Of a DNA stretch of 64,000 bases, positions 99 to 61,262 are shown piece after piece. Source of the stretch: Actinomycetota bacterium (GTDB lineage: Bacteria; Actinomycetota; JAHEXW01; JAGVPG01); NCBI GenBank assembly GCA_020052375.1, contig JAGVPG010000034.1, positions 7,660 to 71,659 of the forward strand, given 5' to 3'. Numbering within the stretch: position 1 is the first letter of the stretch; each line of letters begins with the position of its first letter. Position numbers and translations under genes: made by a program. Under the pieces are notes generated by a model. It was not told where the DNA came from. It did no database searches and saw only the letters and a list, made by a program, of their open reading frames with translations.

Positions 99-791
99 AT
101 GAATGTGATCTGGCAGGGATTGGTCGAAGCCGTCAAGCTTATAATCCGGCTTGATCCGGAAGTGCTCACAGTCCTTTTTCTGACACTGCGCGTGACTGGA
201 ACAGCTACATTGATCGCCCTGGTCCTGGGGTTGCCGATAGGCACATACCTCGCATTAAATGAGTTTCCAGGGCGCCAGCCCATAATAGCGCTTATAAACA
301 CGGGTATGGGATTGCCGCCCGTAGTCGTCGGATTGTTCGTGTTCCTCTTCCTGGCGAGATCGGGTCCTTTTGGATCCTTCGAGGTCCTTTACACGCCGAC
401 GGCGATGATCATCGCCGAGATCATTATAGCGACACCGATGGTCATGGGCGTTACGGTCGCGGCCATCCAGGCTCTGGACCCGCGACTCCAATTACAGATC
501 ATGTCACTCGGAGCAAATCGCTGGCAGTTCTTCTGGACGCTCGTCAAAGAGGCGCGCCTGTCCTTACTGGCTGCGGTCGCCGCCGGGTTTGGGGCGATCA
601 TCTCCGAAGTGGGCGCGGTCATGATGGTCGGCGGCAATATCAAGGGAGAGACTCGCGTGTTGACGACCGCCATCGTTCTGGCGACAAGACAGGGCCAGGT
701 CAGCCTGGCGATTGCTTTAAGCATCATCTTGCTCGGCTTGACGTTCTTTGTAAACATATTTATCACGAAAGCCCAACAGGGAAAAAGATAA
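99..791 (+). CDS. ABC transporter permease, ModB/TupB-type (tungstate/molybdate family)
   Basis: A 230-aa polytopic membrane protein with an MMVGGNIKGETRVLTTAIVL-type C-terminal motif. It is followed directly by a TOBE-domain ATPase and then the Moco biosynthesis genes. Confidence 0.7.
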   Translation: MNVIWQGLVEAVKLIIRLDPEVLTVLFLTLRVTGTATLIALVLGLPIGTYLALNEFPGRQPIIALINTGMGLPPVVVGLFVFLFLARSGPFGSFEVLYTPTAMIIAEIIIATPMVMGVTVAAIQALDPRLQLQIMSLGANRWQFFWTLVKEARLSLLAAVAAGFGAIISEVGAVMMVGGNIKGETRVLTTAIVLATRQGQVSLAIALSIILLGLTFFVNIFITKAQQGKR

Positions 792-792
792 G

Positions 793-1941
793 ATGACAGA
801 TACGCTGCTCGAACTCGAAAAAGTAGTCCATTCATACGCTGGGCGGCAAGTCCTCGAAGTAGAACGCCTGGAGGTCAAGGAGGGGGAGATGCTTGTCGTT
901 CTCGGACAGACCGGCACTGGTAAGAGCACGCTCCTTAGGGTGTTGAATCTTCTTGAACAGCCCGAACAGGGAGTCATACGGTGGAGAGGGCAGGAACTTC
1001 CGGCGAATCATGCCCGGCTGGAGATACGCCGCCGGATCGCCATGGCTTTTCAAGACCCGCTTCTTTTCAGGGCGAGCGTTTTTGACAACGTCGCGTATGG
1101 CTTGCGCTTAAGGCATCGGCCGAAGACGGAGATCGAAGAAAAAGTCGGTAAGATCCTGGGTTTGTTCAAGATCGGTCATCTGGCGACAAGAAACCCTAAC
1201 CAGACGTCGGGCGGGGAGGCGCAGAGAGTCGCTCTGGCGAGAGCATTGGTGATAGAACCGGACCTTCTTCTTCTTGACGAGCCGCTGGCGTCGCTGGACC
1301 CGGTCATCAAAGAGGAGCTGGCGAAGGATCTGATCGAGGTCCTGCACTCGCTGAATGTCAGTTGCGTATACGTGACTCACAGCAGGGAAGAGGCTTTCAT
1401 GGTGGCGGACAGGGTGGCCATCATCGAGCAGGGTAAGATAGCTCAGATAGGCGACCTGGAGGACGTTTTCTATAGACCCGCCAGCGTATCAGTCGCCGGT
1501 TTTGTAGGCGTGGATACGATCATTAAAGGGGAGGTCACAGAGCAAGAAAAAGGCCTTGCCGTCATCCGGATAGACCACGGGCAGATAGAAGCGATAACGG
1601 AATATCGACCGGGTGATAAGGTATTCGTCTGTATCAGGCCGGAAGATATAGTAGTAGAATCCTTTGACTCGGAGGTTCATGCCGGACACAAAGCTAGCGC
1701 CAGAAATCACCTGAAGGGAAAGGTCACGGGTATACGTACGCTGGGCGCTATTGCGAAGGTCAATATCGACTGCGGTGCGCCTCTGGTGGCCACGATCACC
1801 AAGCGTTCGCTGGATGACCTTGGGATAAAAAAAGATGACGAGGTCATTGCTAGTTTCAAGGCAACGTCTGTGCATGTCATAAAGAGTGAGGTGATACCCC
1901 CACCTAAATCCTCCCCCCTGCCTGCCGGCAGGCAGGCTTAA
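793..1941 (+). CDS. ABC transporter ATP-binding protein with C-terminal TOBE/MOP domain (ModC/TupC-like)
   Basis: Walker A GQTGTGKST, the signature LSGGEAQR and Walker B LLLLDEP are present, with a C-terminal TOBE-like ~70 aa. The last ~17 codons read through the 76-bp palindromic repeat at 1891-1966, so the true C-terminus is uncertain. Confidence 0.8.
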   Translation: MTDTLLELEKVVHSYAGRQVLEVERLEVKEGEMLVVLGQTGTGKSTLLRVLNLLEQPEQGVIRWRGQELPANHARLEIRRRIAMAFQDPLLFRASVFDNVAYGLRLRHRPKTEIEEKVGKILGLFKIGHLATRNPNQTSGGEAQRVALARALVIEPDLLLLDEPLASLDPVIKEELAKDLIEVLHSLNVSCVYVTHSREEAFMVADRVAIIEQGKIAQIGDLEDVFYRPASVSVAGFVGVDTIIKGEVTEQEKGLAVIRIDHGQIEAITEYRPGDKVFVCIRPEDIVVESFDSEVHAGHKASARNHLKGKVTGIRTLGAIAKVNIDCGAPLVATITKRSLDDLGIKKDDEVIASFKATSVHVIKSEVIPPPKSSPLPAGRQA

Positions 1942-1966
1942 AGGGGGAGGAATAAAAGGAGGGGGT
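1891..1966. repeat. 76-bp nested palindromic element (family A): CCTCCCCCC - central perfect palindrome CCTGCCTGCCGGCAGGCAGG - GGGGGAGG, ending in an AGGAGGGGGT...AAGGAG RBS-like tail
   Basis: An identical 76-bp copy lies at 4771-4846 and a copy without the central palindrome at 5309-5362. Diverged copies occur at 21725, 24343, 25274, 26605, 27053, 46281, 47354 and 49694. Confidence 0.85.
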
Positions 1967-1992
1967 AAAAAAGTAAGGAGTGAAGACGTTTT

Positions 1993-3234
1993 ATGATCAC
2001 GACTGATCAGGCACTTGAGATCATACTTAAGAAGGCGAAAAGGCTGGAACCGGTGAGTGTTCCTTTGATAGAGTCGTTAGGCAAAGTCCTGGCGGAGGAT
2101 ATCGTATCCGGTGACGACATACCGCCGTTCGCCAATTCCGCGATGGACGGATACGCGGTAGTGGCGTCAGATACTAAAGACGCGTCGGAAGACACTCCGG
2201 TCGAGCTTGAGGTGCTGGAAGACCAGCCGGCCGGGACTGTGGCGACGCAAGCAGTTAGAAAAGGAACAGCGATCCGGATCATGACCGGCGCTCCTCTGCC
2301 GGACGGCGCGGACGCCGTTGTACAGGTGGAGAACACCATCTCCGGCAAGGACCAGCGTGTACGGCACGGTTTTGTTAAGATCCTGAAACCCGTCAGAGCA
2401 ACCAATAATGTCAGAGAGGCCGGCGAGGATGTGAAGCGCGGCGAGATCGTCCTCACGGTGGGCACCCTTTTGGGACCGGCGGCGCTGGGGCTTCTCGCGT
2501 CTCTGGGTCATCCTCATGTCAAAGTATTCAGACCGGCGCGAATAGCGATCATAACGACCGGAGATGAACTTCTTGAGATAGACCAGCCTTTGCAGCCGGG
2601 TAAGATACGCAACTCGAATGCGTATTCCCTGTATGCCCAGGTCGAACAGACAGGAGCGGTACCGGTCAAGGCGGGTATAAGCGTCGATACAAAGGAAGCG
2701 CTGGCACGAATCCTTAAAACCGCTTTAGGTGATGCCGACATCATAATGACAACGGGCGGTGTTTCTGTGGGAGACTATGACCTGGTCAAAGATGTCTTGG
2801 ACTTGCTGGGTGCGAAACTCGAGTTTTGGAGGGTCGCGCAGAAACCGGGTAAGCCGTTCGGGTTCTGGACATATGAGGGCAAGTCGATATTCGGCCTGCC
2901 GGGAAACCCGGTAGCGACGATGGTCTGTTTTGAAGAGTACGTCCGCCCGGCAGCAAGAAAGATGATGGGGTATGACCTGCTGTTCCGGCCGGAAGTCGAG
3001 GCGACGACCACGAACGACATCAAAAAGAAACCGGGGCGCATCCATTTCATACGTGTGATCGTCGAAAAAAATGACAACGTTTATACGGTATCTTCAACGG
3101 GACCGCAAGGCTCGGGCATCTTGAAAAGCATGGTGCTGGCGAACGGCCTGGCATTGATCCCGGCGGACATTGAATTTGTCCAAGCGGGTGGAAAGGTAAA
3201 GGCTCATCTCATCGACCAACCGGAGGACCATTGA
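1993..3234 (+). CDS. moeA: Molybdopterin molybdenumtransferase MoeA
   Basis: The N-terminus ...DIPPFANSAMDGYAV is the classic MoeA motif. Length of 413 aa fits and a C-terminal MoeA_C-like domain is present. Confidence 0.9.
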   Translation: MITTDQALEIILKKAKRLEPVSVPLIESLGKVLAEDIVSGDDIPPFANSAMDGYAVVASDTKDASEDTPVELEVLEDQPAGTVATQAVRKGTAIRIMTGAPLPDGADAVVQVENTISGKDQRVRHGFVKILKPVRATNNVREAGEDVKRGEIVLTVGTLLGPAALGLLASLGHPHVKVFRPARIAIITTGDELLEIDQPLQPGKIRNSNAYSLYAQVEQTGAVPVKAGISVDTKEALARILKTALGDADIIMTTGGVSVGDYDLVKDVLDLLGAKLEFWRVAQKPGKPFGFWTYEGKSIFGLPGNPVATMVCFEEYVRPAARKMMGYDLLFRPEVEATTTNDIKKKPGRIHFIRVIVEKNDNVYTVSSTGPQGSGILKSMVLANGLALIPADIEFVQAGGKVKAHLIDQPEDH

Positions 3235-3275
3235 GGAAGGCAAGAGGCAAGAGGCAAGAAGCAAGAGGGAAAAAA

Positions 3276-4247
3276 GTGCTTAGAGATGCTTGTGGGAGAA
3301 GGATAGATTATTTGCGGATATCGGTCATCGACCGGTGCAACCTACGGTGTGTTTATTGTACGCCGGAACAGGGCGTCGACCTTCTTCCCCGCGATCGCAT
3401 CCTTGCTTACGAAGAGATGCTGGCGTTCTCGAAAGTCGCCGTCATAAACGGGATTGACAAGATCCGGTTGACCGGCGGTGAGCCGCTTATCAGGAGGGAT
3501 ATAATCGGCTTCGTGGAGAGGATGGCCAAGATACCCGGCCTTAAGGACCTGTCTATGACCACGAACGCTATACTTCTAGAGGAACTTGCTCTACCGCTTT
3601 ATGATGCCGGGTTGCACCGCCTGAACATCGGCATCGACACGCTCGACCCCGGGAAGTTCAAGGAGATAACAAGAGGCGGCGATGTCAACCAGGCGATCAA
3701 GGGGATCGAGAAAGCGTTGGAAATCGGTTTTTCACCCGTCAAGATAAACGTCGTCATCATGAAAGGCGTCAGCGAAGACATAACCCCGTTTGTCAAGTTC
3801 ATCAAGGACTATCCGATACACGTAAGGTTCATCGAGTATATGCCTGTAAGCAACGGGTTAAAGTCCAAGTTCTTTGTGCCCATATCCAAGGTGCGAGACC
3901 AACTGAAGAACGTTGAAGGTGTGCATAAAGCTCCGGCGCCGGTCGGGTTCGGACCGGCCAGGGAGTATTATAAGGTCGGTGATTCGGCCGGCACGATAGG
4001 TTTTATCCCCGCCATGAGCGAGCATTTTTGCGAGGAATGCAGCCGGCTGCGTTTGACGGCCGATGGGAAGCTCAGACTTTGTCTTTTCTCAGATACAGAG
4101 GTCGACATCCTCGGCGGATTAAGGCCCAAAGTGGATGACAAAAAGTTGACCGCGCTGCTCAAAGAGGCTGTGAAACTCAAGCCGGCGGAGTATAGTATTG
4201 TAAAGCGTGACGGTAAAGGCCGCACGATGAGCCAGATAGGCGGCTAA
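3276..4247 (+). CDS. moaA: GTP 3',8-cyclase MoaA (radical SAM)
   Basis: IDYLRISVIDRCNLRCVYC is the MoaA CxxxCxxC cluster motif. A C-terminal second cluster region (CEECSRLRLTADGKLRLCLF) is present. The start is called at GTG 3276 after a purine-rich stretch; the longer ORF from ATG 3231 adds an Arg/Lys-rich leader encoded by GCAAGA tandem repeats. Confidence 0.9.
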   Translation: MLRDACGRRIDYLRISVIDRCNLRCVYCTPEQGVDLLPRDRILAYEEMLAFSKVAVINGIDKIRLTGGEPLIRRDIIGFVERMAKIPGLKDLSMTTNAILLEELALPLYDAGLHRLNIGIDTLDPGKFKEITRGGDVNQAIKGIEKALEIGFSPVKINVVIMKGVSEDITPFVKFIKDYPIHVRFIEYMPVSNGLKSKFFVPISKVRDQLKNVEGVHKAPAPVGFGPAREYYKVGDSAGTIGFIPAMSEHFCEECSRLRLTADGKLRLCLFSDTEVDILGGLRPKVDDKKLTALLKEAVKLKPAEYSIVKRDGKGRTMSQIGG

Positions 4248-4288
4248 AAAAGAGCTGAAGGATGAAGGATGAAGGCTGAAGGAGCGAC

Positions 4289-4771
4289 GTGGATAAGAAA
4301 AAGCTGAGTCATGTGGATGACAAGGGGCGGGCGAAGATGGTGGATGTGAGCGGCAAAGAGATCACCGTCCGCGAAGCGACCGCCAGGGGTGAAGTCAGGA
4401 TGACCGCCGGCACCTTGAAGCTCATCCAGGAGAAAGGCATCCCCAAAGGCGATGTCCTTCCGGTCGCCCAGCTCGCCGGCATCATGGCGGCCAAGAAGAC
4501 GCACGAACTCATACCGATGTGTCATCCCCTTGCTCTGACCGGCGTCGACGTCGACTTCGAGATACGCGAGGATGAGCCGGTGATCGATGTGATATCCCAT
4601 GTCAAAACGCGGGACCGGACGGGTGTCGAGATGGAGGCCCTGACGGCCGTCTCGGTGGCGGCATTGACAATATACGATATGTGCAAAGCCGTAGAGAGAG
4701 GCATAAAGATAACAAACATAAGACTAGTAAGCAAAAGTGGTGGAAAAAGCGGTGAATATATTAGTGAGTAG
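4289..4771 (+). CDS. moaC: Cyclic pyranopterin monophosphate synthase MoaC
   Basis: 160 aa; ...[17 protein letters not shown]...[12 protein letters not shown] is the MoaC family. A GTG start follows the GAAGGAG RBS. Confidence 0.9.
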
Positions 4772-4846
4772 TGATACCCCCACCTAAATCCTCCCCCCTG
4801 CCTGCCGGCAGGCAGGCTTAAAGGGGGAGGAATAAAAGGAGGGGGT
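4771..4846. repeat. Family A nested palindromic element (identical to 1891-1966)
   Basis: Exact 76-bp match. It starts 0 nt after the moaC stop, and its tail supplies AAGGAG upstream of the next gene's GTG at 4867. Confidence 0.85.
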
Positions 4847-4866
4847 GGCTAAATAAGGAGTGAAGA

Positions 4867-5310
4867 GTGAAGGAACCAGAAGTTCTTGCTGTAAATGTAA
4901 GTGATAAGAAGGGGACGAAGAAGAAGACGGTCGAGAAATGCGTAGTCCTGAAAGAACACGGTATCGAGGGAGACGCCCACGCCGGTAAATGGCACAGGCA
5001 GGTAAGCCTGCTGGCCGTCGAGAGCATCGATAAGATGCAGGCGAAACTTACGAACATAACGCTGGAATACGGCGATTTCGCGGAGAATATAACCACGCGG
5101 GGCATCGACCTTAAGAACCTTCCCATCGGCACAAGATTGAAGGTCGGCGACGACGTGCTCCTGGAAGTCACGCAGATCGGCAAGGAATGCCATCTCGCGT
5201 GTGACATCAGGAAGCAGGTCGGTGACTGCATCATGCCGAGAGAAGGCATCTTCGCCAAAGTGCTGGAAGAAGGCGAAATAAAGGCCGGAAACAAAATACA
5301 AATAAGTTAG
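4867..5310 (+). CDS. MOSC domain-containing protein
   Basis: 147 aa; the KEHGIEGDAHAG...RQVSLL pattern is typical of MOSC beta-barrel proteins. Its position inside the Moco operon supports the call. Confidence 0.65.
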   Translation: MKEPEVLAVNVSDKKGTKKKTVEKCVVLKEHGIEGDAHAGKWHRQVSLLAVESIDKMQAKLTNITLEYGDFAENITTRGIDLKNLPIGTRLKVGDDVLLEVTQIGKECHLACDIRKQVGDCIMPREGIFAKVLEEGEIKAGNKIQIS

Positions 5311-5362
5311 TACCCCCACCTAAATCCTCCCCCTTAAAGGGGGAGGAATAAAAGGAGGGGGT
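5309..5362. repeat. Family A palindromic element, short variant lacking the central CTGCCTGCCGGCAGGCAGG module
   Basis: GTACCCCCACCTAAATCCTCCCCCTTAAAGGGGGAGGAATAAAAGGAGGGGGT. It is followed by the AGGAG RBS of mogA. Confidence 0.8.
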
Positions 5363-5382
5363 GGCCAGAATAGGAGCGAAAA

Positions 5383-6476: not shown

Positions 6477-6546
6477 GACAAATCCTCCAATATGCCGAAA
6501 ATTGTTACAAAGCGTTGGAACACGAAGAGGCGGGGGATGATGCGTT

Positions 6547-7131
6547 ATGGACGAAAACAAGGAGCTTAAGGAATTGAGGAAGAAACCTGTAAGAAGAACC
6601 ACAAAACACCTGTTCGTGCCCATTATGGGCTTACTCTTTTTGGCTGTGCTCGTAGTCGGCGTGCCTTTCTACTGGACGTCACAGCCGGGCTTCTGCGGCA
6701 GCTGTCATATAATGAAGCCGTATTACAGCACGTGGCACACATCCACCCACGCCAAGCTAGGGTGCTTAAACTGTCATGAAGAGTCCGGCACGATGGGGCT
6801 GGTAAAAAGCCGGATCAACATAACCAAGAATATCCTCGTCAACTTTACGAAAAGACCTGACAAGGTGACTGTAAGTACAAAGATCGACAACACAAAGTGC
6901 TACGAATGCCATAACTCGAAAAGGAAAGTCACGCCGGCCGGCGATCTCAAGCTTCCTCCGAGGCACCACCTGGTGAAAGACAACAAGCTACAGTGTGTCC
7001 AGTGTCACCGGAAGCTGGTCCATAACGAGAAGCCGACGGGCAAGAACAAACCGCGCGAGGCCGTATGTGTCAAGTGCCATCAGGAGCAGAAGATATCGAC
7101 CGAGTGCAGGACGTGCCATTACGAGAAATAA
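6547..7131 (+). CDS. Membrane-anchored multiheme c-type cytochrome (NapC/NirT/NrfH-like), six CXXCH motifs
   Basis: An N-terminal TM helix precedes CGSCH, CLNCH, CYECH, CVQCH, CVKCH and CRTCH. It shares the N-terminal module TSQPGFCGSCHIMKPYYSTWHTSTHAK with the ORFs at 52906, 53758 and 57057. Confidence 0.75.
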   Translation: MDENKELKELRKKPVRRTTKHLFVPIMGLLFLAVLVVGVPFYWTSQPGFCGSCHIMKPYYSTWHTSTHAKLGCLNCHEESGTMGLVKSRINITKNILVNFTKRPDKVTVSTKIDNTKCYECHNSKRKVTPAGDLKLPPRHHLVKDNKLQCVQCHRKLVHNEKPTGKNKPREAVCVKCHQEQKISTECRTCHYEK

Positions 7132-16586: not shown

Positions 16587-16661
16587 TGGTGGAGGTGGGG
16601 GGATTCGAACCCCCGACCTCTGCGATGCGAACGCAGCGCTCTCCCGCTGAGCTACACCCCC
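16587..16661 (-). tRNA. tRNA-Ala (anticodon CGC)
   Basis: The reverse complement folds by hand into a cloverleaf: acceptor GGGGGTG/CACCTCC with G3:U70, D-arm GCTC...GAGC, anticodon stem CTGCG/CGCAG, loop TTCGCAT and T-arm GGGGG-TTCGAAT-CCCCC. A CCA end is encoded. Confidence 0.8.
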
Positions 16662-16752: not shown

Positions 16753-16994
16753 CACAGCATGTTTATGTAGCCGCCGACCCGACGACTCTGTCGTCGTTGC
16801 GAGCCCCCGAAGGGGGTGAAGCAATCTCATGCTCCTCTAAGAATTACCTCTCGTTTGACGAGGGAGGATTAAGGCGGGGTGGCTTCCTGTTTGAGGTTCC
16901 AAAATGGAACCTCAATAAGTCAATGCGCTCCCTTTCTATTCGCGTAGACTATAGTCTATAGTGGAACCATGAAAAACACCTTGACTGTAGGCAC

Positions 16995-19715: not shown

Positions 19716-19763
19716 TCTTGTAGCAGCCGACCTTCAGGTCGGTCACATCTTGCCTCATATCTG

Positions 19764-20621: not shown

Positions 20622-20906
20622 TCAACCACCATCCGCTCATTATTTGTTATATCTTATGAAAACCACAAATATATGTCAACGCTCTATCGTAGAATCAGGA
20701 TTAATCCAGGTTAGCGAGTGTGGAATGTTCCCCGAATTGCAGTTTGCGAATCGCCAATTATTTTCTAATTGCCGACCTTCAGGTCGGCTGATCTCTGTAT
20801 GTAAAAAGACCAAATAAGTATTTTTTAAGTCATGAAATATGAGTTTGACCTATTTCAACTTAAACCTAAAACTTGAAATAAGAAACCGAAGTACTTACTA
20901 CCGCTA

Positions 20907-21010: not shown

Positions 21011-21751
21011 ATGAAGAGCAATCTCGCACGTATGATTAAACTCAAGACATCGCCAGTCGTTGTTCTTTGGACCGATGAGAAACCGGCTGACGCGATCCAG
21101 TGCAAGGAAGGGAAATGGGCTTGCGTCATATCGTTCCTCGTCCAAGCCGCCAAGGGAAAAACGGTCGTATTCGATGAGAGGACGGTCACCTGCCGAGGAG
21201 GCAAGACTGGCTTAGGATTCGGCCGCTACGAGCCCGGCTCGATAGAATATTTCCTCTCAACAGGGGAAAAGGGCGAGGAAGGCGAGCGCTACTGGAAAAC
21301 TCCTGAACTCGCTAGGTCCTTCATCGAAAGCCTGCCCGAATTGAAAGTGCCCACAAAATACGTCGTCTTGAAACCTCTCGAGCAGCTTGAAGAAGGCGAG
21401 ACACCCAAAGCGGTCGTTTTCCTTGTAAACCCGGACCAGCTATCGGCTCTCATCACGCTATCCAACTACGACCGGCCTACAGGCGACAATGTGGTCCACT
21501 ACGCCGGCGCCGGCTGCCACAGCACGGTCCTGTTCCCGATCCTCGAAGCAGATTCCAATCAACCAAAAGCAATAATCGGCCTGACCGATATCTCCGCCCG
21601 CAAAGTCATCGACAAAGACATCCTCTCCTTCAGCGTCCCCTACAAACGCTTCCTCGAACTGGAATCAAACGCAGAAGACAGCTTCCTGAGGACAGATGAA
21701 TGGAAAAGCATAGCTAGGCGGTCTTCCTCCCCCTTGAAGGGGGAGGAATAA
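21011..21751 (+). CDS. DUF169-family protein (uncharacterised, COG2043-like)
   Basis: WTDEKPADAIQCKEGKWACVISFLVQAAKGKTVVFDERTVTCRGGKTGLGFG is a Cys pattern and GLGFG motif recalled from DUF169 proteins. The C-terminus reads into a family A repeat. Confidence 0.55.
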   Translation: MKSNLARMIKLKTSPVVVLWTDEKPADAIQCKEGKWACVISFLVQAAKGKTVVFDERTVTCRGGKTGLGFGRYEPGSIEYFLSTGEKGEEGERYWKTPELARSFIESLPELKVPTKYVVLKPLEQLEEGETPKAVVFLVNPDQLSALITLSNYDRPTGDNVVHYAGAGCHSTVLFPILEADSNQPKAIIGLTDISARKVIDKDILSFSVPYKRFLELESNAEDSFLRTDEWKSIARRSSSPLKGEE

Positions 21752-21779
21752 AGGTGGGGGTGGGTTTTCTTTCCGTTTC

Positions 21780-24287: not shown

Positions 24288-24403
24288 TGTAGCAGCCGAC
24301 CTTCAGGTCGGCTCCCTAAAAGTGATGACTTTCAATAATATTCCCTCCCCCTTTAAGCCTGCCTGCCGGCAGGCAGGGGGGAGAATCAAAGAGGGGGTAG
24401 CAA
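24288..24403. repeat. Composite repeat unit: family B hairpin TGTAGCAGCCGACCTTCAGGTCGGC + CTCCCTAAAAGTGATGACTTTCAATAATATT + family A C/G palindrome
   Basis: Near-identical composite units occur at 26548-26640 and 26998-27089. Confidence 0.8.
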
Positions 24404-25202: not shown

Positions 25203-25403
25203 AAACAGGTCATTCAGGGGCACCGAAGAATCCACCAAGAAGAGAGTGCTCCATCGCACAATATATTAGTTTTCCTCCCCCTTCAAGGGGGAGAATCAAA
25301 GAGGGGGTGGCTCTCCTCACTTTGTAACCATATCTTAACGATACTGTAACCTTGCCTTAACGGTACTGGTCGATGATGTTATCGTTAAGAAAAGGAGGAC
25401 GAT

Positions 25404-26552
25404 ATGAATATGCGTATTCATAAAACCCACGGCATTCTGCTCGGATGTGTATTCATCTTCTCGGTGCTGATCGGTTCCGGTTGCAGGTCGGACGTATCAA
25501 ATACAAGTCAGAATAAAGTGTCCACGAAATCAGAAACGGCTAATCCTAAAGATTTAAAACTTCAGAAGAAAGTGACGTTTAAGAACGGCGCCAGGCCGGA
25601 AGTCGCGGCGACGGGAGACAGGGTCTTTGTGGTATATCTGGACCCGTCCACACCGGATAGAACGTTCAATGTGAAGATCTACAACAAAGACATGACGCAG
25701 GAACGCACCACGAAAGTCATCGTTCCGACCGATCAGGAATATGGCAGCCCCACGGATATCCGGATCGTGAAAGACGGAAAATACCTTTTCACGTTCTACG
25801 AGACCGTGAAAGGTATGACGACCTTTTTGTTCGGGGCCAAATACTCGCTGGACGATGGTTTCGCCAGAGTCGCGTATACGGGACCGATTGCGCAAAGCAT
25901 GATGTTCAAGGTCACCAAGGCAGGGGATGAGAAACTGGATGACCCGGCGCCGATGGTCACGGGAGATCACGTATATGTGATGACACGATATAAAACATCA
26001 CTGGCCAAAGAAGGGGAAACAAAATATAAGATCCGCCAGTTCGATAAAGAACTGCAACCGGTTTCGGAGTTCGAACTGGACCTATCCGACTATATGGATG
26101 GTGAAGTAAGGCAGTCCAGCCTCATATACGTAAACGGCTACTTCTACATAGTTGGCCCGACTACCACGACTGGTACCGGCAATATCGTCGAGACCGTCGA
26201 ATGGACCGCCCCTTCGGATATCATGCTGATCAAACTGGACAAAGACTGGAAAGTCCGGGAAACAAAAGTCGTCGCCAACGAGGACGGATACACGGAAGGA
26301 TACGTCACAGGGCTTGTCCGGGACGGCAAGTATTTCTACATGACATATAACCGCGTCATCCTAGGGCAGGAATTCTCATCGATGATCAGGATCTTTGATA
26401 AGGACTGGAACCTGGTCAAACAAGAAAAAGTTGAAACCGGAGCCGGCGACCTAAGACCTTCCATCTTCGTGACTGATGACAAGCTCTACACCGGCAACGC
26501 CAACAAACAGTCATTAACCGCCGAGATCCTTGTTTATTATAAGGGTTTGTAG
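25404..26552 (+). CDS. Lipoprotein, function unknown (382 aa)
   Basis: A signal peptide with lipobox LIGSGC is present. The TAG stop lies inside the family B repeat (GTTTGTAGCAGCCGACC). Confidence 0.5.
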   Translation: MNMRIHKTHGILLGCVFIFSVLIGSGCRSDVSNTSQNKVSTKSETANPKDLKLQKKVTFKNGARPEVAATGDRVFVVYLDPSTPDRTFNVKIYNKDMTQERTTKVIVPTDQEYGSPTDIRIVKDGKYLFTFYETVKGMTTFLFGAKYSLDDGFARVAYTGPIAQSMMFKVTKAGDEKLDDPAPMVTGDHVYVMTRYKTSLAKEGETKYKIRQFDKELQPVSEFELDLSDYMDGEVRQSSLIYVNGYFYIVGPTTTTGTGNIVETVEWTAPSDIMLIKLDKDWKVRETKVVANEDGYTEGYVTGLVRDGKYFYMTYNRVILGQEFSSMIRIFDKDWNLVKQEKVETGAGDLRPSIFVTDDKLYTGNANKQSLTAEILVYYKGL

Positions 26553-26852
26553 CAGCCGACCTTCAGGTCGGCTCCCTAAAAGTGATGACTTTCAATAATA
26601 TTTTCTCCCCCTTCAAGGGGGAGAATCAAAGAGGGGGTGGCAAACACCGCAAACGTGCAGCTCAAAGGTGTCATCCTGAGGAAGGTCGCCGAAGGCGACC
26701 GACGAAGGACCTAAGAGAAAGCTTACGTGTCCGAATCAACCCAAGTTAAAGAGAATGTAGCGTTCCTTCGAATTACGGCTTGCCAAGTGCTTTCTTATAG
26801 CTGACTTGCTAAGTGTTACAAAACTGACATTTCTAGACCTGACCCCAAAATC

Positions 26853-27001
26853 ACTGGAACCTGATCAAACAAGAAAAAGCAGAAACCGGAGCCGGCGACC
26901 TAAGACCCTCTATTTTCGTAACAGACGACAAGCTCTACGCCGGCAACGCCAACAAACAGTCATTAACCGCCGAGATCCTCGTATATAACAAGATTTTGTA
27001 G
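26853..27001 (+). pseudogene. Diverged duplicate of the last ~50 codons of the 25404-26552 lipoprotein gene (gene fragment)
   Basis: Translation HWNLIKQEKAETGAGDLRPSIFVTDDKLYAGNANKQSLTAEILVYNKIL* matches DWNLVKQEKVETGAGDLRPSIFVTDDKLYTGNANKQSLTAEILVYYKGL*. The same composite repeat follows it. Confidence 0.6.
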
Positions 27002-27194
27002 CCGCCGACCTTCAGGTCGGCTCCCTAAAAGTGATGACTTTCAATAATATTTTCTCCCCCTTCAAGGGGGAGAATCAAAGAGGGGGTGGCAAATCCCCAT
27101 AACCACTAATAACCGCTTGCGAATAGCAAATTGCCTTGTATTCTGACCTGCCAAGTGTTACAGAACTGATAATTCAAGAAGTGACCTTGTTACT

Positions 27195-40390: not shown

Positions 40391-41047
40391 GATTCTTGAC
40401 ACTACCTTAAAAAGATCGCGATCTATCAGTTTTTTCTTCGTTGCATATAAGACTGAATTGCAGTAGGAAATAAGAAGCTCTACATAACCATAGTATATAG
40501 CCCAAGCCTTATCTTCTTTGGTCTTCTGATCGTAAATAAGTGTGAAACAGTTCGAATTCCACTGCTTGGCGAGCGTTAAGACTTCCGGATACTGCATTCT
40601 ATAATCAACCATCTTGTCATATCGCGCTATTATCTCTTGTTGCATCAGGTTTCTTTGCGACTGTTTGTTCTGGCGAAGTTGTAACCAGGCGATTGTGAGA
40701 GAGACAATAGCAGATACAGAAGCTGCGACAAGTGCCGTGATTATCTGGTTCTTCATTATTCTTCCTCATTTTAGGCGTTGATGTGATTATATAGTCTGAA
40801 CAAACAGAGGGTTGAAAGTCAAGATTCTAGATCTTAACATCCGCTTTGCTCCATTTTGACTGTTTTCCGTGTTCGAGATACTTCCATACGTCAATTAATG
40901 GAAGCGACCATATGATGTGACCTGCGGTGCTTCCATACTCTAGTGTATTGGTGCGTGGAAGTGGGGAGGGAAAGCCGACCTGAAGGTCGGCGGCTACAAG
41001 ATCCTACTGATTGCGGCTTGCGAATCGCTTCTTGCTTCTGGCTCTTT

Positions 41048-41083
41048 CTGTTCACTGTTCATTGTTCACAGTTCACTAATCGC
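41048..41083. repeat. Four direct 7-bp repeats TGTTCAC TGTTCAT TGTTCAC AGTTCAC (family E) upstream of the DUF3795 gene
   Basis: A second copy lies at 44624-44660 and a degenerate inverted copy at 47262-47320, upstream of the minus-strand gene that starts at 47244. Confidence 0.6.
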
Positions 41084-41676: not shown

Positions 41677-41900
41677 TAGCAGCAAGAAGCAAGAAGCAAG
41701 AAGCAAAAAACGAGCCGTAATCCGGGGAACATTCTATTCATCACAGGATGCCAATGAATTTAGATTAAACAAAGACAATTAACTTCCGTTGTATGGTGGT
41801 AATTATCGTTGATTATTGCAAGAATATACTTAAATCTGGTATAAACGTAGAACGTAAGAATAATAAAACGACATTGAAAGGCAACTGATAGGCATATCAT

Positions 41901-44612: not shown

Positions 44613-44684
44613 ACTTTTTTACCCTGTTCACTGTTCATTGTTCACCGTTCACTAATTGCGGAAGAGAGGAAGCGCGGAACCGGT

Positions 44685-45048: not shown

Positions 45049-46242
45049 GTGCGCGATCTGTATGTTCGATCGGTCAATAATATTATAAAAAAGAGGCTCC
45101 AAGAGCCTCGTAGATTCATCCAGGTTCTATACGGTCCGAGACAAGTAGGAAAGACTACCGCTATTCTTCAGGTGCTTGAGGGGATCAGGATAGCGCATTC
45201 ATATGCTTCCGCCGACAAACCACTCCTGCAAGATGTCGACTGGGTACAAGATGAATGGCAAAAAGCTCGCGGTCTATTAGCGAAGAATAAACAAGCTGTT
45301 CTTGTGCTCGATGAGATCCAAAAAGTGCCGGAATGGTCGGAAGTAGTGAAACGGCTATGGGATGAAGATACAAGACAAGGCAGACTACTTCATGTTGTAT
45401 TGCTTGGTTCGTCTCCGTTTCTCATCCAAAAGGGTTTAACGGAGAGTTTGGCCGGCCGTTTTGAGGTCATACGCATTCCGCATTGGTCGTTTGTCGAGTG
45501 CCGGGACTATTTCGGTTGGGACGCAGATGTTTATATTTATTATGGCGGGTATCCGGGTGCTGCGCCTCTAATAGAGGACCGCTCACGCTGGGTCAGGTAT
45601 ATAGAGGATGCTTTAATCGAGACGACCGTATCGCGGGACATCTTGCTGTTGACGCGCATCGATAAACCGGCGTTGTTAAGGCGCTTATTCTATCTGGCTT
45701 GCCTGTACTCCGGACAGATTGTGACATATGAGAGTATGCTCGGGCAGCTTCACGAAAAAGGAAACACGACAACCCTAGCACACTATCTAGATCTCCTAGA
45801 CGGTGTCGGTTTTGTGAGAGGTCTTCAAAAATACTCTGGTTCGATAATCCGCCAACGCGCTTCCAGCCCCAAATTGCAGGTCTATAACAACGCTTTGATG
45901 ACTTCTCAATCCGATACAAGCTTTGATGAAGCGCGAGAGGACAAACCGTACTGGGGGAGGCTTGTTGAATCAGCAGTTGGAGCACATCTTCTAAGGGGTG
46001 TTATGGAACACAGATTCGAACTTTTTTATTGGCGCGAGAAGAGCAACGAGGTCGATTTTGTTATCCGTCATAGAAAAGGGGTAACGGCGGTTGAAGTTAA
46101 AACAGGATCGAGTGAACGTGCTCGACGCGGTTTCTCGGCATTCAGCCGGAACTATAAGGCAGATAAAATGATTATTATAGGACCGGAAGGTATACCGGTC
46201 GAAGACTTCCTCTTGGCCGAACCGGACGCTTTTATGAGCTAG
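45049..46242 (+). CDS. AAA-superfamily ATPase with DUF4143 C-terminal domain (COG1373-like)
   Basis: Walker A GPRQVGKTT and Walker B VLVLDEIQ are present. The C-terminal ...WREKSNEVDFVI... region is DUF4143-like. The stop TAG is embedded in a family B repeat. Confidence 0.7.
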   Translation: MRDLYVRSVNNIIKKRLQEPRRFIQVLYGPRQVGKTTAILQVLEGIRIAHSYASADKPLLQDVDWVQDEWQKARGLLAKNKQAVLVLDEIQKVPEWSEVVKRLWDEDTRQGRLLHVVLLGSSPFLIQKGLTESLAGRFEVIRIPHWSFVECRDYFGWDADVYIYYGGYPGAAPLIEDRSRWVRYIEDALIETTVSRDILLLTRIDKPALLRRLFYLACLYSGQIVTYESMLGQLHEKGNTTTLAHYLDLLDGVGFVRGLQKYSGSIIRQRASSPKLQVYNNALMTSQSDTSFDEAREDKPYWGRLVESAVGAHLLRGVMEHRFELFYWREKSNEVDFVIRHRKGVTAVEVKTGSSERARRGFSAFSRNYKADKMIIIGPEGIPVEDFLLAEPDAFMS

Positions 46243-46483
46243 CCGACCTAAAGGTCGGCGGCTACATTTAGTCTACCTAACCCCCTCCCTGGATCCCTCC
46301 CCCTTTGAAATGGGGAGGGAAACGTTTCATTCTCTTTTACCTTTCTAAACAATGTGCATTGTGCGAGGAGTAGGCGAGAGTATGGCATTATACATACTGT
46401 CTCTGGGCTAGGTTGAAGAATTCTTCGAGCGAGATATCTTTAGCGAGAAGATTTACTTCAACCTAGTCCAGGTACACACTTTT
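46243..46483. repeat. Mosaic repeat block: family B hairpin (46246) + family A C/G palindrome (46281) + family D 90-bp element (46390-46483, GGTTGAAGAATTCTTCGAGCG...TTCAACCTAG)
   Basis: The same three modules recur at 47345-47530 on the other side of gene 46552-47244. Confidence 0.75.
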
Positions 46484-46551
46484 CATGTCTTTCGCTGACT
46501 GAGAGCAATCACTTTTAAAGGGAGGCCGACCTGAAGGTCGGCGGCTACGTG

Positions 46552-47344: not shown

Positions 47345-47590
47345 GGAAGAACCAACCCCCACCCTTGATCCCTCCCCCTTAGAAAAGGGGAGGGAAACAC
47401 AGAGGAAAGCCGACCTGAAGGTCGGCTGCTACACTATACATACTGTGTTCGGGGAGGTTGAAGAATTCTTCGAGCGGGTATCTTTAGCGAGAAGATTTAC
47501 TTTAACCTAGTCCGGACACTCACTTTTTTACGTTTGCATAGTTTGCTTCGTCGCGCTGGCGGACATTGCTCCTCGCAACGACACGAGGGT
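47345..47590. repeat. Mosaic repeat block: family A (47354) + family B (47405) + family D (47436-47530) + family C inverted copy (47505-47587)
   Basis: Matches the modules at 46243-46483 and 16691-16752. It marks the right edge of the accessory island, immediately upstream of hemB. Confidence 0.75.
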
Positions 47591-49693: not shown

Positions 49694-49782
49694 TTCCCCC
49701 TCCCTTGAGGGGAGGGGGTCAGGGGGAGGGTGGAAATACTACCCCCTCCTTTAATTCCTCCCCCTTAAAAGGGGGAGGAAAA
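49694..49782. repeat. Two adjacent family A C/G-rich palindromes (CCCCCTCCC-TTGA-GGGGAGGGGG ... CCTCCCCC-TTAAAA-GGGGGAGG)
   Basis: Read directly. It lies between the radical SAM gene and hemL. Confidence 0.75.
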
Positions 49783-52905: not shown

Positions 52906-53739
52906 ATGGCATTTACCGGCAAAGTCAAGTCTTGGTTTTTCTTCATCAACCGAAGGAACCTTACAAGGCCAGTTTTCTGGTTCGCATTCCTCGGAATGAT
53001 CTTCATAATCGCTCTTATGATATCAGTTCCTATGTATATAACGACACGCAACCAGTATTGCTCGACGTGTCACGCGATGGAATCATACTATTCGTCATGG
53101 GAACATTCGACGCACGCCTACGCGGACTGCGTCAACTGCCACGTGGCTCCGGGTCTGGGCAACGACATAAGGCACGTCTACAGGTCGACCAGAGAGTTAT
53201 ATACGAACTTGATCAGTAGCCCCGAGCATTCGGCCAACTTCTCGCTGCCGACGAATGAGATCTGTTTCTCGTGCCATACCGAGTACCGCAGCGTCTCGGC
53301 CAGCGGGGACCTCTTGATACCGCATAAACAGCATGTTAAGCTGCGCAGTCTGCAGTGCGTCAACTGCCACAGGTATCTGGTCCATTATAAGAACCCTGAA
53401 GGCAAGAACACTCCCAGCATGACCATATGCTACAAATGCCATAACGGCGTACAGGCGCCTAAAGACTGCAAGGCATGTCATACGAAGAAGTCATACCCCG
53501 ATACCCACAAGGCGGCGGAATGGTTCGAGGTGCATGGATCTCTGGCAAAGAAGGAAGGCAAAGAGTGCGCCAAGTGCCACGGCTGGACGCCTAAGTATTG
53601 CGAGGAATGCCATCAGAAGAGACCGCCTTCCCATGCAGGCGTGATATGGCGGACAAACCACAAAGACGCGGGCAAGGAACGAGAGCAGGGTTGTTACGTC
53701 TGTCATGGCAAGACGTTCTGTAAAAACTGTCATGATTAG
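52906..53739 (+). CDS. Membrane-anchored decaheme c-type cytochrome (NapC/NrfH-like N-terminal module)
   Basis: An N-terminal TM and 10 CXXCH motifs. Paralogous to the ORFs at 53758 and 57057. Confidence 0.7.
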   Translation: MAFTGKVKSWFFFINRRNLTRPVFWFAFLGMIFIIALMISVPMYITTRNQYCSTCHAMESYYSSWEHSTHAYADCVNCHVAPGLGNDIRHVYRSTRELYTNLISSPEHSANFSLPTNEICFSCHTEYRSVSASGDLLIPHKQHVKLRSLQCVNCHRYLVHYKNPEGKNTPSMTICYKCHNGVQAPKDCKACHTKKSYPDTHKAAEWFEVHGSLAKKEGKECAKCHGWTPKYCEECHQKRPPSHAGVIWRTNHKDAGKEREQGCYVCHGKTFCKNCHD

Positions 53740-53757
53740 GGGGAATCAGTAAAAGAT

Positions 53758-54624
53758 ATGGCGCGCGAAAAGAAGGATCCGAAAAAGAAAGGCCGAATAA
53801 AAGAACGCTTGAAGAAGATCTTCAATAAAGAGAACGCGAAGAAGCCGATCTTCTGGGGCGGTGTTACCGGCGTGGTGGGTCTACTCATGGCTTTGATCGT
53901 CGGGATGATCGCTTTCACCGAACAACCGGTCTTCTGCAATACATGCCACATCATGAAAGGGCCCTATGAGGTCTGGGAGAAGTCGACACACGCGCGGGTA
54001 AGATGCACGGTATGCCACGTAAAACCCGGCTTGTACGAGATGCTTCTACATAAACCGAAAGGCCTGCTGGAGGTATGGGCCGTCATAACCAGGAATCCGG
54101 CCAAGCCGGCTCAAGTGCATCCGCCGGATAATGAGAACTGCAACCTGTGCCATAAGGCGAAGAGAAAAGTCTCGACGACCGGGGACTTGAAGATGCCGCA
54201 CGAAGCCCATATCAAACTGCGCGGCCTTAAGTGCGTCGATTGTCATCGCAACCTTGTACATACGGTTAATCCGAGGAAGAAGAACCTGCCTACGATGATC
54301 ACGTGTTATAAATGCCACGACGGAAAGAAGGCGCCCAACTCCTGCACCGCTTGCCATACGGAGAAGGCGGTGCCTGAAGACCACAAATCCGCTGAATGGA
54401 CGGTGGTACACAGCTCGGTCCAGCAGGGCGATCCGAGTTACTGCGAGAAGTGCCACGGATGGGTCAAGGACTATTGCTCCGAATGCCACCAGAGACGGCC
54501 GAAGAGCCATATGACGAAGTGGCGCACGAATCATCAGACAAAGATCGCGGCTGACGGTAAACTGAGCTGCGCCAAGTGCCATCAAAACGAGATGTGCATC
54601 AGGTGCCATGGCATAATCCCGTAG
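53758..54624 (+). CDS. Membrane-anchored decaheme c-type cytochrome (tandem paralog)
   Basis: An N-terminal TM and 10 CXXCH motifs. Collinear with the ORF at 52906 (e.g. CYKCHDG / CYKCHNG, CEKCHGW / CAKCHGW). Confidence 0.7.
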   Translation: MAREKKDPKKKGRIKERLKKIFNKENAKKPIFWGGVTGVVGLLMALIVGMIAFTEQPVFCNTCHIMKGPYEVWEKSTHARVRCTVCHVKPGLYEMLLHKPKGLLEVWAVITRNPAKPAQVHPPDNENCNLCHKAKRKVSTTGDLKMPHEAHIKLRGLKCVDCHRNLVHTVNPRKKNLPTMITCYKCHDGKKAPNSCTACHTEKAVPEDHKSAEWTVVHSSVQQGDPSYCEKCHGWVKDYCSECHQRRPKSHMTKWRTNHQTKIAADGKLSCAKCHQNEMCIRCHGIIP

Positions 54625-54669
54625 ATACCTTTTTCTATCATATGCAGCTGGATATGATAGAATTATAAT

Positions 54670-55170: not shown

Positions 55171-55210
55171 GGGAGCGGAAAGAGGAAAGAGGGAAAAGGA
55201 TGGGGATTCG

Positions 55211-56845: not shown

Positions 56846-57056
56846 CGGACTCGCGCTTTGAAGACGGTGTGGCCAAGCTCGAGTATATGAGGTTCATGCG
56901 CGATCTCGAAGAAGGACGCATACGCCGCTTGTCTGGTAAAAGAATCGGATAGATAAAGTTTGCACGATAATCGCTCCCACAGATATAATCGTTAATATGT
57001 GAAATTATATTTTATTAGCAGCGCTTTAATCCCTACGTATTCGAGGCAAAGACTAT

Positions 57057-58847: not shown

Positions 58848-58861
58848 AGAGATGGTGAGGC

Positions 58862-61028: not shown

Positions 61029-61262
61029 CATCACCATAATGCCAGTTCAACATATATAAAGCACCCTTTTATGTTCTTGCGTCATATTTCCCAATCTGCT
61101 ATAATGTAATTGCTTGAAAAAGCGCCTGTGAAGTGCTGTGAAGTAGAACACTAAAAACCTCCTGACGTATGGTGGTACAGGAAGGGAATGTCTTTTTGTC
61201 TTTAAAAGGCATTATAGGACGCTGCGTGCCCTAAATCATCCCTGCCTGTTATTAGGCTATCT

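Follow-up and report, generated by a model that had tools for sequence, protein, structure and literature searches.

The G/C-rich palindromes that lie between genes of the Moco operon described here are probably copies of a G/C-rich intrastrand-triplex repeat, of the class that comprises BoxC, PIT elements and TM motifs. This repeat class is already described, having been known since 1992, and the present copies add a new member to it. A unit carries three blocks on one strand: a block of pyrimidines (CCTCCCCC), the purine block that forms Watson-Crick pairs with it (GGGGGAGG) and a third block, GG(A/T)GGGGG, whose sequence mirrors that of the purine block. This anatomy, the covariation of the blocks as triads, the restriction of the elements to intergenic DNA and their polymorphism among strains were observed directly; that the copies in the window (the whole 64-kb stretch of DNA analysed) form a triple helix is inferred.

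The Moco operon contains three copies, two long and one short, with the following features:

1895–1967, no strand assigned: site 1, long-form nested palindrome between the tupC-like ABC ATPase gene and moeA
1897–1905, 1909–1917, 1943–1951 and 1957–1965: blocks of site 1, respectively, the left outer arm (which is the third block of the minus-strand motif), the pyrimidine block, the purine block and the third block
1917–1936, no strand assigned: 20-nt perfect palindrome CCTGCCTGCCGGCAGGCAGG, inserted in loop 1 of site 1
1974–1986, plus strand: SD module TAAGGAGTGAAGA, outside the hairpin and within the 96-nt unit common to sites 1 and 2
4775–4846, no strand assigned: site 2, long form, the same as site 1, between moaC and the MOSC gene
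4777–4785, 4789–4797, 4823–4831 and 4837–4845: blocks of site 2, with the palindrome insert at 4797–4816
4854–4866, plus strand: SD module TAAGGAGTGAAGA, directly ahead of the MOSC gene, whose GTG start is at 4867
5311–5362, no strand assigned: site 3, short form, between the MOSC gene and mogA, with the triplex motif on both strands (minus, 5312–5347; plus, 5325–5362)

The layout agrees with a sequence-only reading of this DNA, which had reported identical 76-nt elements at the tupC/moeA and moaC/MOSC junctions (here 1891–1966 and 4771–4846), a shorter version that lacks the 20-nt palindrome (here 5311–5362, with the same arms), a ribosome-binding site for the next gene after each copy, and an ABC ATPase ORF that runs into one copy by 17 codons (here copy 1, with the stop counted). 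The common unit of sites 1 and 2 spans 96 nt (1891–1986 and 4771–4866; 95% identity), and CCTGCCTGCCGGCAGGCAGG occurs three times in the window (1917–1936, 4797–4816 and 24358–24377), each time in the loop of such an element. AAGGAG or TAGGAG follows every Moco copy (1975–1980, 4855–4860 and 5371–5376), 12, 6 and 6 nt ahead of the starts at 1993, 4867 and 5383, respectively. The ABC ATPase ORF (793–1941) encodes ABC_tran and TOBE domains, with the TOBE match stopping at residue 363 of 382, and its stop codon, TAA at 1939–1941, lies in the loop of site 1. The palindromes in the Moco copies are nested because both strands carry the motif around one shared hairpin.

All eight further intergenic sites named by that reading were found, along with a ninth at 49741–49780, bringing the window total to 12:

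21724–21761, plus strand: half element with 11 triads between convergent genes; a DUF169 ORF ends inside it, with the tail ...SSPLKGEE*
24345–24397, plus strand: long-form half element in a divergent intergenic region, forming a composite with a GTAG-headed palindrome at 24288–24313
25275–25308, plus strand: half element between co-directional genes
26603–26638, plus strand: half element with the perfect mirror GGGGGAGAA-TC-AAGAGGGGG, forming a composite with a GTAG palindrome at 26548–26573
27052–27087, plus strand: duplicate of the 26603 copy, within a 241-nt duplication
46282–46320, minus strand: half element between convergent genes, adjoining a GTAG palindrome at 46241–46266
47357–47395, minus strand: half element in a divergent intergenic region, adjoining a GTAG palindrome at 47408–47433
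49696–49780: two adjoining motifs of opposite orientation (49696–49730, plus; 49741–49780, minus) upstream of hemL

The elements are thus a genuine repeat family, as had been proposed, and a strictly intergenic one: all 12 sites fall within the approximately 9.5% of the window that lies outside ORFs, with the last codons of the upstream ORF extending into the element at two of them. The motif is on the plus strand only at six sites, on the minus strand only at three, and on both strands at three.

A perfect pyrimidine/purine/mirror triad rule holds at 12 of 12 sites and in 15 of 15 strand instances, with 7–11 triads in each. The pyrimidine/purine stems are perfect at all 12 sites (7–11 nt), loop 1 measures 25 nt and contains a hairpin of its own in the three long forms and 3–9 nt elsewhere, and loop 2 measures 2–7 nt in every instance. 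Every G-rich pyrimidine-purine hairpin in the window is accompanied by a third block, and that block is mirror-only rather than direct-repeat-only in 10 cases to 0. The 15 instances compare with none in 200 dinucleotide-preserving shuffles of the window. As a positive control, the same motif finder recovered the E. coli BoxC/TM-ECO pair adjoining hrpB, which corresponds to entries 1 and 2 of Table 1 in PMC4666352.

Beyond the window, genomes from many phyla yielded matches to a 24-base element pattern at no fewer than 117 loci, with locus GC contents of 33–71%. Because the pattern fixes 24 bases, only the unfixed positions and the 105 further motifs described below count as independent evidence. 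Across the 131 pattern matches listed (at least 117 loci), the third-block partner of the purine-block A was T in 81, A in 40, G in 7 and C in 3; among the matches listed, an A at purine-block position 8 was paired with A or T in the third block in 10 of 10 cases, and position 9 gave 71 G/G and 19 A/A pairs. The matched loci listed contain 105 further motifs with other block sequences that still keep the triad rule, for a total of 234 motifs compared with 0 in each of 10 shuffle rounds, and third blocks there are mirror-only versus direct-repeat-only at 69:3. In just 3 of 12 full palindromes could the central bases of the two outer arms form a Watson-Crick pair (5 of the others have A.A, as do the window copies, 3 have T.T and 1 has A.G), so that the arms seem to be under constraint as third strands rather than as mutual partners. 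This comparative evidence points to the mirror relation between the purine and third blocks, a triple-helix requirement, as the constraint, rather than a plain hairpin or quadruplex, and it comes from a sequence variant, present in many phyla, in which the blocks covary as triads while the outer arms do not maintain Watson-Crick pairing. Near-full matches that fall in annotated plasmids overlap no annotated feature, and no Rfam family reached its gathering score for the elements in the window and 18 loci from other phyla.

In E. coli, BoxC, PIT (for potential intrastrand triplex) and TM-ECO are names for the same elements (Bergler 1992; Hoyne et al. 2000; Hoyne & Maher 2002; Holder et al. 2015, PMC4666352). 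Like TM-ECO, the window elements comprise a pyrimidine block, a complementary purine block and a mirror block on one strand, are compatible with G*G:C plus T*A:T or A*A:T triads, and have stems of about 9 nt with short loops; like TM-ECO, they are multicopy, strictly intergenic, found on either strand and located at sites that are hypervariable between close strains, and inverted ('palindromic') pairs, with two members of differing type, are frequent. The E. coli TM motifs are always intergenic, show no strand bias and occupy loci that are hypervariable among strains (PMC4666352). The block sequences differ, however, with CCTCCCCC / GGGGGAGG / GG(A/T)GGGGG in the window and CCCTCNCCC / GGGNGAGGG / GGGNGAGGG in TM-ECO. 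The TM-ECO consensus, CCCTCNCCC N3-6 GGGNGAGGG N3 GGGNGAGGG, is not matched by the window blocks, and the main text of PMC4666352 does not contain the variant string CCTCCCCC / GGGGGAGG / GG(A/T)GGGGG. The element is thus a member of the structural class but lies outside the TM-ECO sequence family, and, because the blocks depart from that consensus (G5 tracts, not GAGAG), homology is undemonstrable for elements this short. Whereas TM-ECO pairs are two separate units, here the motifs of both strands share one central hairpin in a compact nested palindrome; three window copies carry the 20-nt palindrome in loop 1, and the resulting 25-nt first loop lies outside the published 3–6 nt. The copies in the Moco operon, unlike TM-ECO, sit inside an operon and are accompanied by stop and SD sequences, and the host is an uncultured, probably actinomycetotal lineage, whereas TM-ECO has been reported in Proteobacteria.

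H-DNA mirror repeats (homopurine-homopyrimidine) resemble the elements in that a mirror-symmetric purine tract permits a purine-motif triple helix, and such tracts have been linked to polymerase arrest and genetic instability (reviewed in PMC4666352). However, H-DNA arises from two blocks in duplex DNA, giving an intramolecular triplex and a free single strand, whereas the three blocks of the window element on one strand allow a self-contained single-strand fold. If a strand became unpaired during replication, transcription or supercoil-driven extrusion, the pyrimidine and purine blocks could form a hairpin, and the third block could then lie antiparallel in its major groove, giving G*G:C, A*A:T and T*A:T triads. 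A TM-ECO oligonucleotide forms a stable triplex in vitro by CD and NMR, but there was no sign of a stable triplex in double-stranded DNA or in in vivo DMS footprinting (PMC4666352). The mirror rule could instead result from protein recognition or from the mode in which the repeat is generated.

The loci at all three Moco sites vary between contigs that are otherwise approximately 97–99% identical. Site 3 is empty in relatives L118 and L180 (MOSC 97% identical) and in L119 (89%), and in these three the MOSC and mogA genes overlap (TGATG). At site 2, L118 and L180 carry an unrelated heptamer-armed palindrome instead, and L122 (MoeA 99% identical) differs from site 1 by an exact indel of the 20-nt palindrome, with 1917–1936 missing. 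Differences per 100 nt amount to 0–6 in the coding background and 28–106 in the spacers. Since presence differs among near-identical strains, the elements do not serve the operon as a fixed regulator; rather, they arose recently, vary from strain to strain and form no conserved part of operon control. The idea of an element dedicated to regulating the operon is not supported: near-identical strains lack it at two of the three Moco sites, and half elements occur in either orientation, some of them in intergenic regions between divergent or convergent genes.

A non-autonomous, MITE- or REPIN-like mobile element supplied with a transposase in trans, for example, one of the RAYT type that also moves the GTAG palindromes, might also account for the presence/absence alleles and for the identical copies at a distance of 2.9 kb. 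This explanation, which we consider rather unlikely, gains from the composites of GTAG palindrome and triplex motif at 24288–24402, 26548–26641 and 26997–27090, from the GTAG-headed palindromes that adjoin five copies, and from the frequent position of matches in other genomes close to contig ends (among the matches listed). However, a comparison of the filled and empty MOSC/mogA sites, where 14 nt are replaced by 84 nt and the divergence reaches the flanking codons, revealed neither a target-site duplication nor a clean boundary; no transposase-like domain was detected in the ten neighbouring ORFs scanned; no GTAG palindrome adjoins the Moco copies; and in E. coli no TM-ECO was found on mobile elements (PMC4666352). 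MITE-type repeats (Correia/NEMIS, ERIC/IRU, BOX and RUP) are likewise small, palindromic, strain-variable insertions co-transcribed with flanking genes, but they have terminal inverted repeats and target-site duplications and span 100–200 nt, whereas here no duplication was seen and the unit measures 35–76 nt.

An unlikely alternative is that the elements act at the RNA level, as do REP-like cis elements, by protecting the upstream cistron from 3' exonucleases, providing a processing site or uncoupling translation, and so set Moco expression ratios. REP, BIME and REPIN sequences are likewise short, GC-rich, intergenic palindromes, often in operons just past stop codons, multicopy and assembled into mosaic composites; they differ in having a conserved GT(A/G)G or CGTC head and a RAYT transposase and in lacking a mirror third block, and no head tetranucleotide is conserved among the copies studied here. 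An Azospirillum copy occupies the classic REP position, with the binding-protein gene of an ABC operon on one side and the permease gene on the other. The predicted RNA hairpins of the three Moco copies, modelled with ViennaRNA, which considers Watson-Crick and GU pairing alone, are very stable (−54.6, −52.8 and −39.1 kcal/mol; z-scores −5.1, −5.3 and −4.2) and begin at, or 1–4 nt past, the upstream stop codon. The downstream SD is outside the hairpin and free, which speaks against SD sequestration; the notion that the element provides the SD is supported at sites 1 and 2, where the repeated unit contains the SD module TAAGGAGTGAAGA of the next gene. Neither an attenuator, as suggested earlier, nor a terminator is supported, as no U-tract or intrinsic terminator was found on the plus (sense) strand at the three Moco elements (tails AAAAAAG, GGCTAAA and GGCCAGA) and a Moco riboswitch is already present upstream of the operon; the E. 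coli PIT elements are summarised as devoid of promoter and terminator activity (PMC4666352, citing Hoyne & Maher 2002). Further against an RNA role, the same junctions lack the element in near-identical strains, half elements lie in either orientation and in divergent or convergent regions, a hairpin leaves the mirror third block and the tolerated outer-arm mismatches unexplained, and RNA does not form purine-motif triplexes (PMC4666352).

It is very improbable that the elements serve as binding sites for a nucleoid-associated or other DNA-binding protein able to recognise the G/C tract palindrome, with the mirror reflecting protein symmetry. Specific features are conserved across phyla (A or T at one arm position, TT..AA loop ends and GGGGGTG(A/G) ends), as such a site would predict, but the sites are dispensable in close strains, and many block sequences under one triad rule fit a structural rule better than a single recognition sequence; we know of no universal protein that binds such a palindrome. 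The hunch of a non-B structure in the G/C tracts pointed in the right direction, but a G-quadruplex on the G-rich strand or an i-motif on the C-rich strand, with four G tracts folding in competition with the hairpin, is extremely unlikely: GGGGGAGGG-nn-GGGTGGGGG, the consensus across phyla, does conform to a canonical quadruplex motif, and window sites 46282, 47357 and 49696 contain one, but the other 9 of 12 sites, including all three Moco copies, lack four tracts of G≥3 (loops of 1–7 nt) while keeping a perfect mirror, as in GGGGGAGAA-TC-AAGAGGGGG, so that four tracts occur at 3 of 12 sites versus 12 of 12 for the mirror rule, and a quadruplex does not predict the A-position covariation, a partner limited to A or T, or the conserved complementary pyrimidine block.

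Under the triplex-repeat interpretation, site 1 was probably copied locally to sites 2 and 3, and the route may have been recombination or template switching between intergenic spacers. The copies appear to be neutral, seemingly tolerated because the copied stretch spans the region from the stop codon to the RBS and start, replacing the former stop/start overlap. They would add a very stable intercistronic hairpin while the next RBS stays free, and any stabilising or uncoupling effect on expression would be a plausible by-product. It is quite improbable that the G5-type motif is a single family spreading horizontally across phyla, from Parcubacteria to Proteobacteria, with propagation dependent on its own non-B fold; under such a scenario, a triplex-stalled fork might, for example, switch template and copy 'intercistronic cassettes' (stop, structured module, RBS and start) between operon junctions, which, if true, would amount to transposase-free DNA movement that also rewires translational coupling.

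The filled, empty, long and short natural alleles at defined operon junctions of near-identical strains are constructs for tests of expression and local mutation. In annotation, the elements should not be taken for operon-specific regulators, and they add spurious C-terminal tails to ORFs, such as ...SSPLKGEE. The window also holds a separate family of GTAG-headed palindromes, which fits REP better than the triplex-motif element does.

Alignment of the copies in the window showed that their common unit is not the full palindrome. Instead, the unit starts with the inner hairpin (CCTCCCCC-loop-GGGGGAGG), which a short spacer separates from a third block, GG(A/T)GGGGG(T), and only the three copies in the Moco operon have a left outer arm in addition. 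The third block is neither a direct nor an inverted copy of the purine arm, but mirrors it, as in the arm/third block pairs GGGGGAGG/GGAGGGGG, GGGGGAGAA/AAGAGGGGG and GGGAGGGGG/GGGGGAGGG. A finder built on this arrangement required the pyrimidine/purine stem to be perfectly Watson-Crick paired, 7 nt or longer and 60% G or more, with loop 1 spanning 3–30 nt and loop 2 spanning 1–8 nt; the third block downstream had to mirror the purine block, each G facing a G and each A facing an A or a T. In the window it returned 15 instances, which fall into 12 sites, against none for 200 dinucleotide-preserving shuffles, and all G-rich homopurine/homopyrimidine hairpins of the window possess a mirror third block on at least one strand. 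A test of mirror against direct repeats left many blocks in an uninformative "both" class, because the trimmed G-rich blocks are nearly symmetric.

Triplex motifs returned by the finder in the window:
1897-1965, both strands, site 1 (ABC ATPase/moeA junction)
4777-4845, both strands, site 2 (moaC/MOSC junction)
5312-5362, both strands, site 3 (MOSC/mogA junction)
starts at 21724, 24345, 25275, 26603, 27052 and 49696, plus strand
starts at 46282, 47357 and 49741, minus strand

The description of the Moco copies in the sequence-only reading held throughout: the same 76 nt stand at 1891-1966 and 4771-4846, 5311-5362 keeps the arms and lacks the 20-nt perfect palindrome CCTGCCTGCCGGCAGGCAGG, the family is intergenic, and the ABC ATPase ORF (793-1941) reads into the first copy. 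All 12 sites fall in the approximately 9.5% of the window outside ORFs. The repeated unit of sites 1 and 2 reaches 96 nt at 95% identity, including a downstream module, TAAGGAGTGAAGA. The 20-nt palindrome occurs three times in the window, each time in the loop of an element, never outside the elements, and in none of 179 loci from elsewhere. Genes flanking the window sites are arranged co-directionally, convergently and divergently, and an Rfam scan that covered the window and 18 loci of other phyla placed no family on the elements. In a Pfam scan, ORF 793-1941 carries ABC_tran and TOBE domains, the TOBE match stopping at residue 363 of 382. Element-encoded tails (...SSPLKGEE*, ...SSPLPAGRQA*) were observed on ORFs entering an element at 21724-21751 and 1895-1941 in the window and at ~1012-1050 in L122, a related contig where the ATPase ends in ...SSPLKGEE* at a short-form site 1. 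One and the same tail occurs on unrelated proteins, and such tails are a likely origin of spurious C-terminal extensions in annotations.

Using a search pattern derived from the element (CTCCCCCTT N1-2 AAGGGGGAG N8-11 GGGGGT; 24 fixed bases) on one genome per GTDB species, we recovered at least 117 loci. Only five third-block G are fixed by this pattern, which defines the informative positions among the 131 distinct matches listed. Opposite the purine-block A stands T (81 of the listed matches), A (40), G (7) or C (3), and in 124 of 131 the base after this partner is G. At position 8, the ten listed matches with a purine-block A all have A or T in the third block (pyrimidine block T in nine of the ten), and at position 9 the pairs among the listed matches are G/G (71) and A/A (19), with few exceptions. 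At least 105 further motifs in the listed loci fall outside the search pattern, with different blocks that follow the same triad rule, for example CCTTCCCCC/GGGGGAAGG/GGATGGGGG, CCCTCTCCCC/GGGGAGAGGG/GGGTGAGGGG and CCCCCCTTT/AAAGGGGGG/GGGGGGATT, and with stems that reach 12 triads. The total in the listed loci is at least 234 motifs; when all loci were shuffled, each of the 10 rounds gave 0. Among the listed matches, 12 are full nested palindromes of other genomes; only 3 of them could form a Watson-Crick pair at the centre of the outer arms, the rest having A.A (5), T.T (3) or A.G (1) there, and all three window copies have A.A. That these pairs are mostly non-Watson-Crick argues that each outer arm is constrained as the third strand of its own strand's hairpin, with A or T allowed, and not as the pairing partner of the other arm. 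A parallel exists in E. coli, where inverted pairs always combine one type A and one type B motif.

A literature search with exact sequence strings of the element returned nothing relevant. The link to the triplex-repeat literature came from a weaker blastn match to an E. coli chromosomal site beside hrpB (CCCTCTCCCTTGAGGGAGAGGGTTAGGGTGAGGGTGA), recognised as BoxC, and a subsequent keyword search; this site corresponds to TM-ECO numbers 1 and 2 (Holder et al. 2015, PMC4666352). As related there, BoxC was first described in Bergler 1992 and found again as potential intrastrand triplex (PIT) elements (Hoyne et al. 2000). The TM-ECO pattern is CCCTCNCCC N3-6 GGGNGAGGG N3 GGGNGAGGG, and E. coli MG1655 carries 23 copies, all of them intergenic, with no preference for either strand. 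In CD and NMR the strand on its own folds into a stable purine-motif triplex, but neither double-stranded DNA nor DMS footprinting in vivo showed signs of a stable one; neither promoter nor terminator activity was found for the elements, and their loci are far more variable among E. coli strains than control intergenic regions (PMC4666352). As a positive control, our finder recovered the E. coli BoxC/TM-ECO pair. Every structural criterion tested places the elements in the BoxC/PIT/TM class of intrastrand-triplex repeats. The window elements do not match the TM-ECO sequence consensus, and therefore represent a different sequence family inside the class. Absent from the main text of PMC4666352 are the G5 variant of the blocks, which is spread over a very wide taxonomic range, the compact nested arrangement with one hairpin common to both strands, the polymorphic 20-nt palindrome in loop 1, and a location inside an operon along with stop and SD sequences.

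By their record titles, the matches listed belong to Nitrospirota, Thermodesulfobacteriota, Alpha-, Beta- and Gammaproteobacteria, Planctomycetota, Actinomycetota, Chloroflexota, Bacillota, Bacteroidota, Nitrospinota, Methylomirabilota, Spirochaetes, Ca. Stahlbacteria, Auribacterota and Parcubacteria, with locus GC from 33% to 71%. Many of them lie close to contig ends, as expected for repeats. Among the at least 117 loci, stop-to-stop frames contain 44% of sites compared with a baseline of 88%; this indicates depletion without amounting to gene calling, the test being uninformative in GC-rich genomes. Blastn of the consensus against plasmid records gave many Azospirillum matches in unannotated intergenic DNA, one of them between the genes for the binding protein and the permease in an ABC operon. 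No triplex motif was found in the other MoeA loci (L123-L179, 34–63% identity), so the element is not a general feature of Moco operons.

Comparison with related contigs revealed polymorphism at the Moco sites. Site 3 has no element in L118 (ENA ERZ27256953), L180 (JGI 3300031949) or L119, whose MOSC proteins are 97%, 97% and 89% identical to that of the window and where MOSC and mogA overlap by one base (TGATG). The filled site has 84 nt in place of 14 nt, with no target duplication in this comparison. In L118 and L180, site 2 is taken up by an unrelated palindrome of 190 nt with arms made of heptamer arrays, (GTGAGTN)4 ... (NACTCAC)4. In L122, which is from the same metagenome as L180 and encodes a MoeA 99% identical to the window's, site 1 is of the short form, with the 20-nt palindrome exactly missing and identical surroundings. 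Reciprocally, L118 carries a 66-nt heptamer-plus-SD cassette between ccmB and ccmC, where the window has a TGATG overlap. Differences between contigs amount to 0–6 per 100 nt in coding DNA and 28–106 in spacers, and spacer divergence reaches a few codons into the adjoining genes, at the end of the one and the start of the next. Because site 1 is common to strains, sites 2 and 3 occur only in the window's strain, and site 2 equals site 1 including the flanks, we infer, as the simplest history, that site 1 was copied locally, through conversion or template switching and not by cut-and-paste.

Most likely, the elements are unstable intergenic repeats under structural constraint, which the operon tolerates and which do not act as its regulator. 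The three Moco junctions are predicted to form hairpins of -54.6, -52.8 and -39.1 kcal/mol (z-scores -5.1, -5.3 and -4.2), and a putative effect of these hairpins on mRNA stability or translational coupling is plausible. Sequestration of the SD, which the sequence-only reading had proposed to check by folding, is not borne out; AGGAGG within the third block is paired in the predicted fold, and the functional SDs (1975-1980, 4855-4860, 5371-5376) lie outside the hairpin. Its attenuator idea fares no better, the sense strand of the three elements having no terminator-like site. Moreover, a Moco/tungsten riboswitch aptamer (RF01055, 63 bits) lies at 4825-4951 of the source contig (L181, JGI 3300038466 Ga0394676_52088), 184–310 nt upstream of window position 1, ahead of two small ORFs and then the transporter/Moco operon, which thus already has a dedicated control element. 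A G-quadruplex is unlikely, since a canonical motif is missing from all the Moco copies and present at just three of the 12 sites in the window.

Other repeats accompany the triplex motifs. A second family, the GTAG-headed palindrome GTAGC(A/C)GCCGACCTTCAGGTCGGC, fits the REP definition (GTAG tag and hairpin). Five of its copies lie 13–56 nt from a triplex motif, and three are within one composite repeat of ~95–115 nt (24288-24402, 26548-26641, 26997-27090). Pfam scans of ten ORFs adjoining repeats found no transposase, and no RAYT-like gene near the GTAG palindromes.

GTAG palindromes in the window:
19719-19742, 20771-20789, 24288-24313, 26548-26573 and 26997-27022, plus strand
40973-41003, 46241-46266, 46525-46548 and 47408-47433, reverse orientation

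A 241-nt direct duplication (26404-26644 and 26853-27093, 93% identity) spans the 3' end of ORF 25404-26552, the downstream GTAG palindrome and a triplex motif. A degenerate triplex-like sequence, CCTCTCGTTTGACGAGGGAGGATTAAGGCGGGGTGG (16848-16881), probably a decayed copy, lies beside tRNA-Ala(CGC) at 16587-16661 (minus strand); a tmRNA call at the same place was rejected as a clan overlap, the tRNA scoring just over the Rfam tmRNA gathering threshold.

Intercistronic spacers are also filled by tandem heptamer arrays (AGGCAAG, TGAAGGA, CTGTTCA, AGCAAGA, GGAAAGA), which resemble the cyanobacterial STRR heptamer repeats.

Heptamer arrays:
3238-3268, 4256-4283, 41048-41077, 41681-41706, 44624-44653 and 55177-55200, window
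205-396 and 6520-6585, L118
~2330-2370, L122

Between moeA and moaA the array reads GGCAAGA in the window but TGAAGGA in the strain with the 99% identical MoeA, and relatives carry heptamer-armed palindromes and the heptamer-plus-SD cassette at junctions whose genes overlap in the window. The spacers of this lineage behave as exchangeable cassettes.

Further along the window, downstream of cytochrome c maturation (ccm) and haem biosynthesis genes, an ORF cluster (53428-62335) has repeated CxxCH-coding segments (multihaem cytochromes). HemL homologues at 63–66% identity, from Actinomycetota/Ca. Aquicultor MAGs, tentatively assign the host to this group.
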